Below are positions 23,669 through 30,965 of a stretch of 32,000 bases of DNA, piece after piece. The stretch comes from Nitratidesulfovibrio vulgaris str. Hildenborough (GTDB lineage: Bacteria; Desulfobacterota; Desulfovibrionia; Desulfovibrionales; Desulfovibrionaceae). Position 1 is the first letter of the stretch. Every line of letters starts with the position of its first letter. Under the pieces are notes generated by a model that was not told the origin of the DNA, did not search any database, and saw only the letters and a program-made list of their open reading frames with translations. Made by a program: the position numbers and the translations under genes. The stretch covers positions 1,650,001-1,682,000 of the forward strand of contig NC_002937.3 in assembly GCF_000195755.1 (NCBI RefSeq), given 5' to 3'.

Positions 23669-23984
23669 AGATTCTTCCGCCCTCCGTATCTTTTGCCTGT
23701 AAGCATCCGTGAACGTCGCCCCTTTGCACACTGCTGAAGTGCATGTGTTGTCCCGGGCTGACTTCAGCGGATGCGGCTGTCTTCCGTGTGCGCCGTGGTG
23801 GGGTCCTCGATAATGATGCATGAGGATATGGCGCAGTATATTCCGTCCATGTATCCTTGCGTACGCGGCTATGGTATGATTGGATGTAATGGGATGGCGT
23901 GACGGGGCCATCGGGGCGCATGCCGAAACCGTCACATGTCGTCATTCTTTGCCGCGTACATCGCGCATAAGGTCCGGGGGGTCC

Positions 23985-25727
23985 ATGAGCGCAGTCGTAG
24001 AAATCGCCCGCGATGTCAGCACGCATCTTGTCGAAATCGGCAAGGGGCTTGCACGTGTGGTGCATGAACAGGAACAGACCTTCCTCGACCTTGGAGATGC
24101 CGTTCAGCGGATTGCCATGCAGGTTGGCGGCATCGGCGACGAGGCACGAGACCTTGTCAGGGTCACGTCGGGCGAGGCCATGTCACACATCCTCGAAGCG
24201 CTGGAGGGCGAGTTCGGTCGCATGGCCGAATTGTGCGCCACCGGTGTTCATGGTGGAGAACAGGCCCTGCTCGCCCGTACACGGGAACTCGTCCAGAACC
24301 TTGGCGTCTCTGTCCGTGAGTACGCACGCATCGTGCGGACCCTTCAGATGCTCGGCATCGCCACCCGCATAGAGAGTGCGCGTCTCGGTGCCGACGGACG
24401 TGGGTTCAGTACTCTGGCGGATGACGTCGAGAAGCTTGCGGGAAAGATCATCGAGTATTCGTCGAGCCTGCTTGAACAGGGGCGCGCACTCGATGTCACC
24501 ATCGCCGAGGCGGAGGGGCGGAGTCTTGAGATGGGGGCGAAACAGGATTCGTGTTCGCTTGCCGTTTCAGTAGGGCTGCTCGACGGACTCGACAACCTCA
24601 AACGCACGATGGCTTCGAGCAGGGCGTCGTCGTTGCAGGTCGAGGGATTGCTGGCAGACATCAACAAATCCATGCAAGGCCTCGTGGGGTCGCTCCAGTT
24701 TCACGACATCGTCCGGCAGCAGGTCGAGCATGTCGTCGAAGCCGTCGATGATGTCCTTGCCGGGCTGGCAAGGAACGCTGCCGCAGAATCCACTTCTGGT
24801 GCCGAGGAACTGGCTTTCGCCGCAGAGGTGTGCACCCTGCAGGAGTCCCAGACCCGTGCGGCTTCAGAGAGTCTCTCCACGGCTGTCGCCTCGTTGCGTT
24901 CCGAAATGCGCACCATCGCCAGCAGCGTCCGGCAGGTCGTTCTGGATGCCGGCGGAGGCTCGGGCGAGGGTGCGTCGGAATCGACAGCAGCAAAGGTCCT
25001 GGACGCCCTAGAGAACGAAGTCCGGGCAGCCGCGACCAGTATGCGCGAACTTGCCGTGCAGGGCGAAGACATGGGTCGCACCATGGAGATGGTCGCGTCC
25101 ACGGTTTCGGACATGACGGCGTTTCTCGCCGACATCGAGGATGTCGGATCGGAAATCGAGCTCATCGCCCTCAATGCGAGCATCAGTGCGGCGCATACGG
25201 GTGACAAGGGGAAGGCGCTCGGTGTGCTCGCAACGTCCATCCAGCGTCTTTCGCAGGATGCGGGGACACAGACGGTCGCCCTTGCAGACCTGCTGAGGAG
25301 CATCGACACCGCAGCCGGGGAACTGAAGGCTCTGGCCCTGTCCTACCTTGACATGAGCAGGGTTTCTGCCGTCAAGGAGGAACTCGAGCGGCTGACGCTC
25401 GCCTTGCGCGAAGCAAGTGGCGAGGCTGAACGCCACTTCAGGGGCGTTGCCAGCAGTTGCGATGTGCTCGCGCGTGACATGGAAAGACGCGTGCAGGACA
25501 TCGCAGTGGACAGGCTCGTCTGCGCTGCGCTCGACAAGGGGGCTGAACGGTTCGCCGTGGTGGCCGCCAAGGCGCGGCGAGGGGTTCCGGCCGGGACGCA
25601 GGTGCCGCGCGAGCGCATGAAGCATATGCATCAACGTTACACCATGCAGCAGGAACGCGTGCTGCATGGCAGGCATGTCGGCGAGTCGACCGACGATGGC
25701 ATGGGCGACAACATCGAACTGTTCTGA
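23985..25727 (+). CDS. Soluble chemoreceptor-like protein with two MCP signalling (hairpin-tip) modules
   Basis: Start at ATG 23985 (MSAVVEIARD), 5 nt after GGGGGG. The track start at 23880 adds an Arg/Cys-rich extension. There is no TM-length hydrophobic stretch. Tip-like copy 1 is RIESARLGADGRGFSTLADDVEKLA. Tip-like copy 2 is LIALNASISAAHTGDKGKALGVLATSIQRLSQ. The protein lies directly upstream of cheY-cheA-cheR-cheB. Confidence 0.75.
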   Translation: MSAVVEIARDVSTHLVEIGKGLARVVHEQEQTFLDLGDAVQRIAMQVGGIGDEARDLVRVTSGEAMSHILEALEGEFGRMAELCATGVHGGEQALLARTRELVQNLGVSVREYARIVRTLQMLGIATRIESARLGADGRGFSTLADDVEKLAGKIIEYSSSLLEQGRALDVTIAEAEGRSLEMGAKQDSCSLAVSVGLLDGLDNLKRTMASSRASSLQVEGLLADINKSMQGLVGSLQFHDIVRQQVEHVVEAVDDVLAGLARNAAAESTSGAEELAFAAEVCTLQESQTRAASESLSTAVASLRSEMRTIASSVRQVVLDAGGGSGEGASESTAAKVLDALENEVRAAATSMRELAVQGEDMGRTMEMVASTVSDMTAFLADIEDVGSEIELIALNASISAAHTGDKGKALGVLATSIQRLSQDAGTQTVALADLLRSIDTAAGELKALALSYLDMSRVSAVKEELERLTLALREASGEAERHFRGVASSCDVLARDMERRVQDIAVDRLVCAALDKGAERFAVVAAKARRGVPAGTQVPRERMKHMHQRYTMQQERVLHGRHVGESTDDGMGDNIELF

Positions 25728-25753: not shown

Positions 25754-26116
25754 ATGAGCAAACTGATCATGTCCGTCGATGATTCTGCTAGTATCCGTCA
25801 GATGGTGGGCTTCACACTCCGGAATGCCGGTTACGAGGTCATAGAGGCCTCGGACGGCAAGGACGCGCTGGGCAAGCTCTCCGGCCCGGTGAAGATGGTC
25901 ATCACCGACCTGAATATGCCCAACATGGATGGTATCGAGCTCATAAGGCGCATACGGGCCACGCCTGCCTACAAGTTCATTCCCGTGGTCATGCTCACCA
26001 CCGAATCCCAGGCGGCACGTAAACAGGAAGGCAAGGCAGCCGGGGCCACGGGGTGGATAGTCAAGCCGTTCAAACCCGAGCAGTTGCTGGCTGTCGTGCA
26101 GAAGCTGCTAGGCTAG
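25754..26116 (+). CDS. cheY: Chemotaxis response regulator CheY
   Basis: 120 aa single REC domain. It has SVDDS, the phospho-acceptor context MVITDLNMPNMDG, and MLTTE...IVKPF. Confidence 0.9.
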   Translation: MSKLIMSVDDSASIRQMVGFTLRNAGYEVIEASDGKDALGKLSGPVKMVITDLNMPNMDGIELIRRIRATPAYKFIPVVMLTTESQAARKQEGKAAGATGWIVKPFKPEQLLAVVQKLLG

Positions 26117-26183: not shown

Positions 26184-28310
26184 ATGATCGTGCAGGATGA
26201 ACTCAACCGTCAGGCGTTCGTCGAAGAGGCGCAAGACCTGCTGGCCGAACTTGAGACGGCGTTGCTTGAAATCGAGGAACGTCCCGAAGACAGGTCGCTC
26301 GTCGACCGCATTTTCCGGGCCATGCACACGATCAAGGGGTCGGGGGCGATGTTCGGCTTCGACGACATCGCGTCCTTCACCCATGATGTGGAGAGTGTCT
26401 TCGACAAGGTTCGCAATGGTGAGATGGAGTTGTCTCCGGAACTGCTCGATCTTACGCTGAAGTCGCGTGACCATATCGCCTACCTTCTGCAGTGTGCCAC
26501 GAAAGGCCTCGCCGTCGACGTCTCCATGTCCGCCGACCTCACGCAGGCTCTCCGGGCCCTGCTGCCGGGTGATGACCACGCGTCCGCGTCCCCTGCCGAT
26601 GAGATGCCGTCGTCCGGTGAGGTCGAAGGTCCCCGGCGGACCTACCGTGTGCGCTTCAAGCCGCATCCGCAACTCTTCCTCTCGGGCACGAACCCTCTGG
26701 GGCTGGTGCGCGAGATACAGGACCTGGGGCGTTCGAAGCTCTTCGTCCATTTCGGTGACGTGCCAGCCCTCGATGAACTCGACCCGGAGCAATGCCATGT
26801 GTGGTGGGATGTGTTGCTCACCACCGATAGTGATGAAGCCGCCATCCGTGACATCTTCCTCTTTGTCGAGGACGATGCGACCGTTGATGTGCGGCTCATC
26901 GACGAGGCGAACCTGCTTGAACAGGACGGTGCCTACAAGCGGCTTGGCGAGATTCTGCTTGAACGGGGCGATGTGGCGACCGAAGACCTGCGGCGGGTGC
27001 TGGAGGAGCAGCGTCCCATTGGCGAACTGCTCGCCGAGGCAGGCATCGTCACCCCTGATCAGGTCGCTTCCGCGCTGGCGGAGCAGAAGACGGTGCGCGA
27101 ACTGCGCCGCAGCCGCACCGAAGACGGGGACAAGCCCGCCGAAAAGGCGGGAGACGCCGGGGCGAGCATTCGCGTCTCTGCTGCCAAGCTCGACTATCTA
27201 GTCGATCTCGTAGGTGAACTTGTCATCGTGCAGTCCCAGATCGCGCGTATGGCGCACGAGCATCCCGCCCCCGGCATGTTGAGCCTCGTCGAAGCCCTCG
27301 AAAGGCTCAGCGACGACCTGCGCGACACGACGCTGGGTGTGCGCATGCTGCCCATAGGAACCACGTTCAGCCGTTTCAGACGGCTGGTGCGCGACCTCGC
27401 CGGAGAATTGGGCAAGAGCGTCGAACTCGTCACGCTCGGAGGCGAGACGGAACTGGACAAGACCGTCATAGAGCGACTGGGCGACCCGCTGGTGCATTGC
27501 CTGCGCAACAGCCTCGACCATGGTGTGGAATCGCCGGAACGCCGTCTGGCAGCCGGGAAGAGCGCCACGGGGCGCATCACGCTGGCAGCCGCTCACGCTG
27601 GCGGCGAGGTGCTGGTGACCATTTCGGATGATGGTGCGGGCATCGATGCCGAAAGAATCTATCAGGCTGCCCTGCGCAAGGGCATCATTGCCCCCGAGGT
27701 CGACCTTTCCACCCGGCAGAAGCTGGAACTCATCTTCGCGGCAGGCTTCTCCACTGCGGAGAAGGTGACCAGCGTCTCGGGGCGCGGCGTCGGCATGGAT
27801 GTGGTGAAGCGAGCCATCGAGAGCCTGCGCGGGCGTATCGAACTGGAGAGCACGCCGGGCAAGGGGACAGTCATCACCATACGGCTGCCGCTCACGCTTG
27901 CCATCATCGACGGGCTTCAGGTTCGCGTGGGGGACGAGTCCTACATCATTCCGTTGCCCCATGTGGAAGAGTGCGCCGAACACAATACGCCCGACCATGT
28001 CGACGGGCGACAGCGCATCATCAACCTGCGGGGTGACATCGTGCCGTTCATACGCTTGCGCGATGTCTTCCGGGTTCCGGGTGTCTCTCCGGGCATGGAA
28101 CAGCTTGTGGTGGTGAACGCGCTCGGAAGCCGATTCGGGCTGGTTGTCGACTGCGTCATCGGAGAGCACCAGACGGTCATCAAGAGTCTTGGCAAGGTCT
28201 ACAAGGACATTCCGGGCATTTCCGGCGCGACCATTCAGGGGGACGGCAGCATGGCACTGATCATCGACGTGCCGGGACTCGTCCATACCGCAGCGCTTGA
28301 GGCCGCATGA
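26184..28310 (+). CDS. cheA: Chemotaxis histidine kinase CheA (Hpt, atypical middle region, dimerisation, HATPase, CheW-like P5)
   Basis: 708 aa. P1 is FRAMHTIKGSGAMFG (His codon 26325-26327). P3 is IRVSAAKLDYLVDLVGELVI. P4 carries DPLVHCLRNSLDHG, DDGAGID and GRGVGMDVV. P5 is LAIIDGLQVRVGDESYIIPL...ALIIDV. Residues about 130-310 are not a canonical P2. Confidence 0.92.
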   Translation: MIVQDELNRQAFVEEAQDLLAELETALLEIEERPEDRSLVDRIFRAMHTIKGSGAMFGFDDIASFTHDVESVFDKVRNGEMELSPELLDLTLKSRDHIAYLLQCATKGLAVDVSMSADLTQALRALLPGDDHASASPADEMPSSGEVEGPRRTYRVRFKPHPQLFLSGTNPLGLVREIQDLGRSKLFVHFGDVPALDELDPEQCHVWWDVLLTTDSDEAAIRDIFLFVEDDATVDVRLIDEANLLEQDGAYKRLGEILLERGDVATEDLRRVLEEQRPIGELLAEAGIVTPDQVASALAEQKTVRELRRSRTEDGDKPAEKAGDAGASIRVSAAKLDYLVDLVGELVIVQSQIARMAHEHPAPGMLSLVEALERLSDDLRDTTLGVRMLPIGTTFSRFRRLVRDLAGELGKSVELVTLGGETELDKTVIERLGDPLVHCLRNSLDHGVESPERRLAAGKSATGRITLAAAHAGGEVLVTISDDGAGIDAERIYQAALRKGIIAPEVDLSTRQKLELIFAAGFSTAEKVTSVSGRGVGMDVVKRAIESLRGRIELESTPGKGTVITIRLPLTLAIIDGLQVRVGDESYIIPLPHVEECAEHNTPDHVDGRQRIINLRGDIVPFIRLRDVFRVPGVSPGMEQLVVVNALGSRFGLVVDCVIGEHQTVIKSLGKVYKDIPGISGATIQGDGSMALIIDVPGLVHTAALEAA

Positions 28311-29209
28311 TGGGACAGGGGGTATCGGAAGGTATGATACAGGGGCCGCCGGAAAGGGGAGGGGGCGATGGCGCGCCTTTCAGACCGAAGAGCATGACGC
28401 CCAAGGTGTTCGAGCGTATGAGTCGCTACGTGTATGAACAGGTCGGCATCAAGCTCACCCCTGCCAAGCGCATCATGCTCGAGGCGCGTTTGCAGAAGCG
28501 CCTTCGTACTCTCGGGTTCGATTCCTATGAGCAGTACGCCGAGTACCTCTTCACTGCGCGAGGGCAGCAGGAGGAGTTGCAGCAGTTCATCGATGTGGTG
28601 ACCACGAACACCACCGAGTTCTTCCGCGAGGGCAGGCACTTCGAGTTGCTGGCGCAGAAGGTGCTGCCCCGCTGGCGTTCGCAGTTCGGTACCTCGCGTG
28701 CCATGCAGATATGGAGCGCGGGCTGCTCGTTCGGCATGGAACCCTATACACTGGCCATGGTGCTTGCTGACTTTGCCGAGCGCAATTCGGGGTTCGTCTT
28801 CTCTGTGCTTGCCACCGACATCTCCGCCCGGGCGCTGCAACATGCCCAGCGTGGCATCTATGACGAAGAGCGGGTGGAGAGTATCCCGGAATCGTTCCGC
28901 AAGCGTTTTCTGCTGCGCAGCCGAGAAAGGGCCAGAAAACTGGTACGCATCGCCCCGGAGATACGGCATCTGGTCACCTTCCAGCGGCTGAACTTCATGG
29001 AGGACTTCTCGTTCAGAACCCCCATGGACGTCATCTTCTGCCGCAACGTGATCATCTATTTCGACAAGCCGACGCAAGAGCGGTTGTTCTCGCGTTTCTG
29101 CGAAAGCCTGCGACCGGGGGGGTATCTTTTCATCGGTCATTCCGAGAGCCTGACGGGCATGTCACTGCCCCTCGAAGCCCAGGCTCCCACCGTATACAGG
29201 AAGGTGTAG
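28307..29209 (+). CDS. cheR: Chemotaxis protein methyltransferase CheR
   Basis: The ATG overlaps the cheA stop as ATGA. Contains [10 protein letters not shown], the SAM-binding [29 protein letters not shown] and [10 protein letters not shown]. An alternative internal start lies at 28394. Confidence 0.9.
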
Positions 29210-30305: not shown

Positions 30306-30965
30306 ATGATGAGTGACGAACCTAAGGGCGCGATACTGCAGCGCGACAAGCTCACCTACGCCATCGTACCCCGCACCCCGTGCGGTCTTCTCACCCCCGA
30401 CGTGCTTGATGCCGTGTCGCGGGTCTGCAGGAAGTACGAAGTGCCGATCATCAAGATCACATCCGGGCAGCGTCTGGCCCTTGTCGGCATGAAGAAGGAA
30501 GCCGTCGAACCCATGTGGGAAGAGCTTCGCCTTGACGTCGGACGTGCCGTAGAACTTTGCGTGCACTATGTGCAGGCGTGCCCCGGTACGGCGGTCTGCC
30601 GGTTCGGCCTTCAGGATTCCCTCGGCATCGGCGTGGCCATAGAAGAGGAATATGTCGGGCACGACTTCCCAGCCAAGGTCAAGTTCGGCATTTCGGGCTG
30701 TCCCTTCTGCTGTGGCGAAAGCTACCTGCGAGATGTAGGTCTCGTGGGCACCAAGAAGGGCTGGACGCTCATCGTGGGTGGCAATTCCGGCGGGCATCCG
30801 CGCATCGGCGATGTGCTTGCAGAAGAGCTTTCCACTGATGAGGCCAAGGGGCTGATACGTAAGTTCATGGAGTTCTATCGCGATAACTCGGGTAAACGGC
30901 TGCGTGTCTCCAAGTTCGTCGAGAAGACGGGCATCGAGGCCATACGGCAGGCGGTACTCGGTTAG
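30306..30965 (+). CDS. sir: Small assimilatory-type sulfite reductase (siroheme/[4Fe-4S] nitrite-sulfite reductase fold)
   Basis: 219 aa. The cluster/siroheme Cys motifs are CPGTAVC (C-x5-C) and CPFCC (C-x3-C). The size and sequence type match the low-molecular-weight assimilatory sulfite reductase described from D. vulgaris Hildenborough. AGGAG lies at 30298-30302. The second ATG at 30309 is an equally possible start. Confidence 0.85.
   Translation: MMSDEPKGAILQRDKLTYAIVPRTPCGLLTPDVLDAVSRVCRKYEVPIIKITSGQRLALVGMKKEAVEPMWEELRLDVGRAVELCVHYVQACPGTAVCRFGLQDSLGIGVAIEEEYVGHDFPAKVKFGISGCPFCCGESYLRDVGLVGTKKGWTLIVGGNSGGHPRIGDVLAEELSTDEAKGLIRKFMEFYRDNSGKRLRVSKFVEKTGIEAIRQAVLG

Follow-up and report, generated by a model that had tools for sequence, protein, structure and literature searches.

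A compact MshEN_N-like module, a candidate c-di-GMP receptor, between P2 and P3 of a chemosensory kinase CheA

Introduction

The MshEN domain has been solved with cyclic di-GMP (c-di-GMP), and the roles of its motif residues have been defined (Wang et al., 2016, Nat Commun 7:12481). Isolated MshEN_N (residues 1-62), without the C-subdomain, binds c-di-GMP at 0.35 µM (Wang et al., 2016). MshEN is also said to occur with 'chemotaxis protein kinase CheA', and the architecture HPT-CheY-binding-MshEN_N-dimerisation-HATPase-CheW is listed for an Aeromonas CheA (Wang et al., 2016, Supplementary Table 4 and Figure 3c). Here, a CheA encoded in a stretch of 32,000 nucleotides (the window) is described. 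Between its P2-type domain and its P3 dimerisation domain lies a tandem motif that is almost certainly homologous to MshEN_N and, on balance, probably binds c-di-GMP.

The tandem motif in CheA

Positions 26937-27086 on the + strand of the window encode CheA residues 252-301, KRLGEILLERGDVATEDLRRVLEEQRPIGELLAEAGIVTPDQVASALAEQ. The translation is exactly the one quoted in a first-pass annotation of this DNA. Two motifs of 24 residues and a spacer make up the segment:

26940-27011, + strand: MshEN-type motif 1, residues 253-276, RLGEILLERGDVATEDLRRVLEEQ; helices at residues 254-261 and 266-275 in the AlphaFold2 (AF2) model
27012-27014, + strand: one-residue spacer, R277, from the alignments
27015-27086, + strand: MshEN-type motif 2, residues 278-301, PIGELLAEAGIVTPDQVASALAEQ; helices at residues 279-285 and from residue 291 in the AF2 model

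The published motif exists in a strict form, RLGxx(L)(V/I)xxG(I/F)(L/V)xxxxLxxxLxxQ, and in a relaxed form, [RKPN]hGxxhhxx[GAS]hhxxxxhxxxhxx[QNKRYWST] (Wang et al., 2016). Motif 1 (R253-Q276) fits all fixed positions of the strict form except position 11, where D263 takes the place of a hydrophobic residue. Motif 2 (P278-Q301) has zero mismatches against the relaxed form. CheA thus holds two consecutive motif copies with one mismatch, as the first-pass annotation had read them: a first copy complete save for one Asp, and a second, looser one. The linker of about one residue that it noted is R277 alone, and its caution on binding competence was justified. The single-residue spacer leaves a unit of 49 residues, while MshEN_N is defined by a spacer of 5 residues and a length of 53.

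The frequency of such tandems by chance was assessed for the window together with 80 related loci, in 1,411 open reading frames (ORFs) of at least 200 amino acids that total 555,236 residues, allowing at most one mismatch per motif and a spacer of 0-12 residues. The tandem motif was present in 68 of the 1,411 ORFs, and the spacer was one residue in all 68, as in the CheA orthologues. Residue-shuffled versions of the 1,411 ORFs contained no tandem motif.

Homology to MshEN_N

The curated NCBIfam model NF053729 (c-di-GMP_motif, MshE-related), with a cut-off of 38 bits, scores 45.8 bits on the whole CheA and 54 bits (E = 1e-14) on a 56-residue segment. Single halves reach 26.4 bits (motif 1) and 31.6 bits (motif 2). 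With a spacer lengthened in silico to five residues, the segment scores 59.8 instead of 54 bits, whereas replacing D263 by Ile gives only 55.3 bits. In a Solidesulfovibrio orthologue, the full 53-position profile is matched in one stretch. A family profile (A1), built from 40 family members, was searched against the sequences of the PDB. It retrieved Thermus thermophilus PilF (2.3e-16), the c-di-GMP-binding GSPII-B (8e-7), Vibrio cholerae MshE (5HTL, 1.9e-6) and Geobacter PilB (2.7e-6). The alignments span both motifs, and their sole gap corresponds to 4-6 residues absent from the CheA spacer.

The first-pass annotation had proposed a search with PF05157 (T2SSE_N). No match was obtained at E ≤ 10 on the whole CheA, on residues 130-320 or on the 50-residue segment. 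In the alignment of Wang et al. (2016), PF05157 begins within motif 2, and most of it falls on the MshEN_C subdomain. CheA is devoid of MshEN_C, so the result is uninformative, and with NF053729 positive it does not amount to a refutation. The T2SSE_N/MshEN-like helical motif that the annotation had recognized in CheA is borne out by NF053729 above its cut-off and by the A1 matches between 2e-16 and 2e-6. Judged by these profiles, residues 253-301 are almost certainly homologous to MshEN_N.

The AF2 model of residues 244-322 (40 sequences) has a predicted local distance difference test (pLDDT) value of 84, with a core above 90 that includes the spacer. Helices at residues 254-261, 266-275, 279-285 and 291-314 reproduce the pattern of helix-turn-helix pairs of MshEN_N. 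Only Q276-R277-P278 is non-helical between helices 2 and 3.

Conservation and distribution

A scan of one genome per species yielded 403 relatives, and 80 loci among them were retained. Nitratidesulfovibrio and other Desulfovibrionaceae contribute CheAs at 58-69% identity. At approximately 50% identity follow Geobacteraceae, Desulfuromonadales, Desulfobulbales, Syntrophobacterales, Nitrospirota, Acidobacteriota and others. The CheAs of all 80 loci align end to end with the window CheA, and the tandem module, spaced by one residue, is present in every one of them.

Residue frequencies were counted per alignment column over 81 CheA sequences. G255, I257, L258, G262, G280, A297, L298, E300 and Q301 are invariant. 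Position 253 is basic in 75 sequences (K in 48, R in 27). The counts for L254, L273 and Q276 are 74, 78 and 72; L269 is present in 57 and replaced by other hydrophobic residues in the rest. The spacer position 277 is K or R in 78 sequences, and position 278 is occupied by R (51 sequences), P (20) or K (7). Position 279 is hydrophobic in all 81, and position 294 is V or I. Hence the ligand-contact positions (1, 2, 3, 17, 21 and 24 of each motif, and the turn Gly at position 10) are conserved. D263 is kept in 78 of the 81 sequences. Both sequence and length are variable in the flanks, residues 241-251 and 310-327.

Residues 150-310, searched exhaustively against 1.84 billion cluster representatives, matched 672 clusters (50% identity) at E ≤ 1e-10. 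The spacer is one residue in 140 of 143 representatives, these being the ones among the best 150 that match the family profile. Longer spacers were seen in P0130 (+5, 'RqslgrKSLG'; also P0272), P0228 (+1) and P0193 (~21). In distant family members, position 11 holds the canonical hydrophobic residue ('ERGVV', 'ERGLV'), which indicates that the Asp was derived within a lineage that began as ordinary MshEN_N. The family spans Desulfovibrionaceae, Geobacteraceae, Nitrospirota, Syntrophobacterales, Acidobacteriota and Spirochaeta. A survey of orthologues for the same insert had been suggested in the first-pass annotation as a check against a linker that varies among close relatives; its presence in 80 of 80 loci and, with the same spacer, in 140 of 143 representatives answers this in favor of a conserved module.

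Domain layout of CheA and the P2 domain

The remaining parts of CheA are arranged around the module as follows:

26211-26462, + strand: P1 (Hpt), residues 10-93; PF01627, E = 3e-18
26637-26903, + strand: P2-type domain, residues 152-240, beta-alpha-beta-beta-alpha-beta; AF2, Foldseek and homologues
26904-26939, + strand: variable, gap-prone linker from P2 to the insert, residues 241-252; low conservation and indels in the 81 sequences, low pLDDT where the AF2 model begins
27087-27164, + strand: extension of helix 4 to about residue 314, then a variable acidic/basic linker to P3, residues 302-327; AF2 and indels
27165-27329, + strand: P3, dimerisation, residues 328-382; PF02895 (H-kinase_dim), E = 3.7e-11
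27483-27896, + strand: P4, ATP-binding kinase, residues 434-571; PF02518 (HATPase_c), E = 4.9e-20
27912-28289, + strand: P5, CheW-like, residues 577-702; PF01584, E = 1.1e-27

P1, P3, P4 and P5 follow each other in the order of a CheA, and all four exceed the Pfam gathering thresholds. The helix 4 extension is seen in the AF2 model as a helix at model residues 48-71, followed by low pLDDT. Between P1 and P3 (residues 94-327), Pfam finds nothing significant, only a weak DUF4388 match, and the Pfam P2 model (PF07194) does not match the window CheA even at E ≤ 10. PF07194 likewise misses the P2-type domain of the Aeromonas and Pseudomonas relatives. As a consequence, automated annotation would show an 'empty' gap of approximately 230 residues between Hpt and the dimerisation domain across the whole lineage.

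According to the first-pass annotation, the MshEN-like motif stood in place of P2. This part of its reading is not upheld, because a P2-type domain is present at residues 152-240. The AF2 model of residues 150-246 (29-sequence alignment) has a pLDDT of 91, a predicted template modelling (pTM) score of 0.80 and the topology beta-alpha-beta-beta-alpha-beta. Foldseek aligns it with many ferredoxin-like folds at E ~3e-3 to 2e-2. Among the 50 matches listed, the P2 of Thermotoga maritima CheA (1u0s_A; probability 1.0, template modelling (TM) scores 0.54/0.60) has the highest target-normalized TM-score. Searched against PDB chains, a sequence profile of the P2-like segment gave nothing above chance level and did not detect the P2 chains. 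Homology was found to the equivalent CheA region in Sinorhizobium meliloti, other alphaproteobacteria, Vibrio and Aeromonas. By predicted fold, position and homology, residues 152-240 are the P2 of this CheA lineage, with CheY binding as putative function.

The CheA of Vibrio sp. THAF64 (L083 7518-9623, on a 1.85-Mb replicon) has the same P2-type domain, joined to P3 by a low-complexity linker, and is devoid of the MshEN module. S. meliloti CheA also is without the insert. With Vibrio as natural control, the occurrence of this P2-type domain in CheAs without the insert characterizes the MshEN-like unit as an insertion after P2. The THAF64 gene belongs to a cluster cheY-cheA-cheW-cheW-MCP-cheR-cheD-cheB (MCP, methyl-accepting chemotaxis protein), a region that is unannotated in the PLSDB gene table.

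Proposed function and rival explanations

On balance, the module probably binds c-di-GMP and has a regulatory role; we infer both, the binding of the ligand as well as a possible change in kinase activity. The compact MshEN_N-type module (residues 253-301), two helix-turn-helix motifs in 49 instead of the canonical 53 residues, would form an independent bead between P2 and P3 with variable linkers on both sides. Binding is expected to follow MshEN: the basic residue or Pro at motif position 1 would lie along the guanine, while Leu at position 2 and two hydrophobic residues from the LxxxLxxQ of the other motif would form a hydrophobic cluster on the base. Backbone amides of Gly would bond to the Hoogsteen edge, and the two Gln residues would hold ribose and phosphate. 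Ligand occupancy may alter the reach of the P1-P2 arm or its docking on P4, or else the seating of CheA in the receptor array. In this way, the amount of messenger would determine the kinase output of this chemosensory pathway (soluble MCP-CheY-CheA-CheR-CheB).

Proven binders in PilF share several deviations of the window module. GSPII-C, with a dissociation constant (KD) of ~500 nM, has Pro at position 1 of motif II, and position 11 of its motif I sequence is occupied by Lys, which is charged. GSPII-B (KD 6 nM) has Lys at position 1, as do most CheA orthologues. Deviations of this kind at positions 1 and 11 are thus tolerated in proven binders. The PilF double mutant Q190E+Q218E is abolished in c-di-GMP binding, which underlines the weight of the conserved Q276 and Q301 in CheA. 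Active c-di-GMP enzymes are reported for Desulfovibrio (PMC4114195), which likewise favors binding.

Several observations weigh against binding. Spacers in the published MshEN alignment range from approximately 3 to more than 10 residues, none being of 1 (Wang et al., 2016), and characterized c-di-GMP binders have 4-7. The non-binding XpsE has changes that include I19R, at the position that corresponds to D263. Even with a near-perfect motif I, PilF GSPII-A fails to bind, which shows that the motif is not proof of binding. In Foldseek, the model of residues 244-322 gave no significant superposition on MshEN or GSPII structures of the PDB; the best match was PilF GSPII-A (9g1w) with E = 1.4, a TM-score of 0.31 and a root-mean-square deviation of 10.8 Å. 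Foldseek may cope poorly with a helical unit of 50 residues that ends in a long helix, or the short spacer may impose a different packing. Full-text literature searches turned up no binding assay, kinase assay or other experiment on a CheA-MshEN protein. Pfam detected no GGDEF or EAL gene in the window; in the 80 related loci, scanned crudely for motifs, neither was seen, and an HD...GYP pattern gave only three weak matches.

It is possible, though rather unlikely, that the module descended from MshEN_N and binds no nucleotide, serving as a folded protein contact or spacer that docks, for example, on the double-tip receptor, CheY or P4. Its counterparts would then be the non-binding PilF GSPII-A and the N-domain of XpsE/GspE. 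The one-residue spacer beyond the range of known binders, the conserved Asp at a core position changed in XpsE, the failure of GSPII-A to bind and the failed superposition would all fit such a role. So would the invariant or nearly invariant residues outside the MshEN consensus (E260, R261, D263, A297, E300), which suggest an additional or different interface. A 2026 preprint on accessory, non-motility CheA classes describes their P2-P3 inserts as unexplained and speculates that they contact receptors. However, the positions conserved in the window family are the ligand-contact ones, including two surface Gln residues without obvious structural role. XpsE lost many contact residues at once (G11V, R38G, G40L, L54H, L58C, Q61V), and the canonical hydrophobic residue at position 11 persists in distant family members.

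A lower probability still is assigned to a noncanonical site, in which the invariant one-residue spacer would prevent the intramolecular bundle. The pocket would then be formed across the CheA dimer, by motif 1 of one subunit and motif 2 of the other, or the ligand would be another cyclic dinucleotide, e.g. 3',3'-cyclic GMP-AMP (3',3'-cGAMP), which is used by Geobacter and relatives. A spacer fixed at one residue across a large family, with Geobacteraceae and other Thermodesulfobacteriota among its members, is consistent with this, as are the location of the module ~25 residues upstream of the P3 dimerisation helices and a monomer model that is not superposable on MshEN_N. All guanine-contact positions nevertheless match the c-di-GMP motif, the three non-helical residues Q276-R277-P278 are in principle enough for a tight helix-helix turn, and the long-spacer members P0130 and P0193 keep the same motifs. 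If the dimer arrangement were true, the messenger would be a dimer-bridging switch gating trans-autophosphorylation, a regulation of a chemotaxis kinase without known precedent. A mere coincidence in a generic amphipathic helical linker is highly improbable. The missing Pfam T2SSE_N match and the weak DUF4388 match are all that points to it, and it is refuted by the NF053729 score, the A1 E-values against MshE and PilF, the absence of tandem motifs from shuffled sequences and unrelated ORFs, and a module near-invariant across phyla between flanks that vary.

Gene cluster and neighborhood

The ORF list and Pfam place the kinase in a chemosensory operon MCP-cheY-cheA-cheR-cheB on the + strand of the window, with a soluble MCP:

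23880-25727, + strand: MCP, soluble, two receptor-tip-like motifs, first gene of the cluster; PF00015 in two stretches
25754-26116, + strand: cheY, single-domain response regulator; PF00072, E = 4e-26, and synteny
26184-28310, + strand: cheA, 708 residues, P1-P2-[MshEN_N-like insert]-P3-P4-P5; ORF, Pfam and equivalog-level similarity to CheA in NCBIfam
28307-29209, + strand: cheR, methyltransferase; PF01739 and PF03705
29212-30285, + strand: cheB, methylesterase with receiver domain; PF01339 and PF00072
30306-30965, + strand: 219-residue ORF directly after cheB, small sulfite reductase-like; sequence resemblance

The MCP has no transmembrane segment. It shows an internal duplication and two segments resembling the tip of Tsr, IATRIESARLGADGRGFSTLADDVEKLA and IELIALNASISAAHTGDKGKALGVLATSIQRLSQ, and is syntenic in most related loci. 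Its ORF is listed from the TTG at 23880, but translation may in fact begin at an in-frame ATG, at 23982. The stop codon of cheA is overlapped by the start codon of cheR (28307-28310, ATGA arrangement), which suggests translational coupling. A protein identical to the window CheA (P0002) is encoded on a metagenome contig of the Joint Genome Institute.

The order MCP-CheY-CheA-CheR-CheB is conserved among related loci. In Desulfovibrionaceae, conservation extends to DUF3426-RadA upstream and to the small sulfite reductase-like gene downstream, which follows cheB in eight loci (DUF3426-RadA-MCP-CheY-CheA-CheR-CheB-SirL). The ORF at 30306-30965 resembles the small assimilatory-type sulfite reductase of D. 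vulgaris. No cheW gene was found in the cluster or elsewhere in the window. In 40 of the 80 related loci, cheA has a single-domain cheW (~150 residues) close by on its own strand, in some directly downstream. A diguanylate cyclase or phosphodiesterase adjoining the cluster was considered as contextual support and rejected, since Pfam showed none in the window and the crude motif scan none in the 80 loci.

The closest named relatives of the window CheA are CheAs of Nitratidesulfovibrio, and cheA1 (DVU1594) of D. vulgaris Hildenborough probably corresponds to it. The peptides DATVDV and GEVLVT, encoded by the published cheA1 primers, both occur in it. The primer table of that paper is inconsistently labelled, so the link to DVU1594 is a lead and not a result. 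A cheA1 mutant of D. vulgaris Hildenborough had no defect on soft agar, and the role of cheA1 was described as still to be explored (PMC3944678). The predicted module gives a lead on an orphan chemosensory pathway, and the family that carries it probably includes CheA1.

Comparison with known systems

The Aeromonas CheA is the closest described protein. Its domain order is the same, and its MshEN_N is inserted at the corresponding point, preceded by a homologous P2-type domain and followed by P3; it likewise is a bioinformatic prediction only. The CheA of Aeromonas sp. BC14 plasmid p1 (L081 8515-10728) is near-identical to the example of Wang et al. (2016). It differs from the window CheA in a spacer of 9-12 residues instead of 1, in a degenerate first motif (MLG...) and in an identity of approximately 25% over the compared segment. 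With 37.5 bits, it falls just under the NF053729 cut-off, compared to 54 bits for the window segment. The Aeromonas che cluster also differs by its STAS, CheW, CheD and extra MCPs. A long-spacer MshEN_N insert (36.8 bits on NF053729) was also observed in a plasmid CheA of Pseudomonas sp. HR96 (L082 8494-10677), and both plasmid clusters have the order MCP-CheY-STAS-CheA-MCP-CheW-[MCP]-CheR-CheD-CheB.

The novelty of a c-di-GMP module in CheA that the first-pass annotation implied holds in part only: the module is MshEN-like, but the fusion at the same position had already been listed (Wang et al., 2016). New here is the compact variant, in which one residue separates the motifs and motif position 11 carries a conserved Asp. 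By sequence, the window family is a distinct, better-conserved, compact version of the published architecture, and the window CheA matches NF053729 better than the published Aeromonas example. The CheA-MshEN_N fusion has stood in a supplementary table since 2016; the family described here spans several phyla. Its shortened spacer represents a natural test of the MshEN_N geometry needed for binding, with the long-spacer proteins P0130/P0272, P0193 and P0228 as natural comparators.

V. cholerae MshE (5HTL) and PilF GSPII-B and GSPII-C (8PDK, 8PFA) share with the window CheA the tandem 24-residue motifs, the same contact residues, the same predicted secondary-structure pattern of four helices and a significant profile similarity. 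Their spacers are 5-7 residues long, in contrast to one in CheA, which is without MshEN_C and has Asp at position 11 of motif 1. In CheA, the module sits in the middle of a kinase; in MshE and PilF, it belongs to the N-terminal part of a secretion or pilus ATPase. In the Escherichia coli glycosyltransferase NfrB, MshEN is fused to a non-ATPase enzyme as allosteric input. NfrB, whose MshEN domain is C-terminal, is activated by c-di-GMP, and binding has been shown experimentally. The NfrB spacer of 4 residues is shorter than the canonical one and longer than that of the window CheA; partner enzyme and module position differ. Weak direct matches of the window CheA to NfrB models were found in NCBIfam.

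Accessory CheAs, including that of the V. cholerae F9 system, have a P2-P3 insert at the same position, as compared by description only. The soluble F9 receptor DosM, with two signalling domains, resembles the two-tip MCP of the window, which is itself soluble with two signalling domains. Receptors of the DosM type scaffold double-layered cytoplasmic arrays. CheW3 of F9, with three concatenated CheW domains, was not found in the window, and the CheW of 40 related loci is a single-domain one. An assignment of the window system to the F9 class was rejected, as CheW3 is absent from the window and the related loci.

Other routes by which c-di-GMP reaches chemotaxis or kinases involve the PilZ proteins YcgR, MapZ (via CheR1) and PlzC, and PilZ-containing receptors. 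CckA binds c-di-GMP on its own catalytic domain. These systems resemble the proposal for the window CheA in that a second messenger modulates a chemosensory or histidine-kinase output. They operate through an adaptor or a site on the kinase domain, whereas the window CheA is predicted to have a dedicated MshEN_N module built in. The known links between c-di-GMP and chemotaxis run via PilZ adaptors; a CheA-borne receptor would set the kinase output directly.

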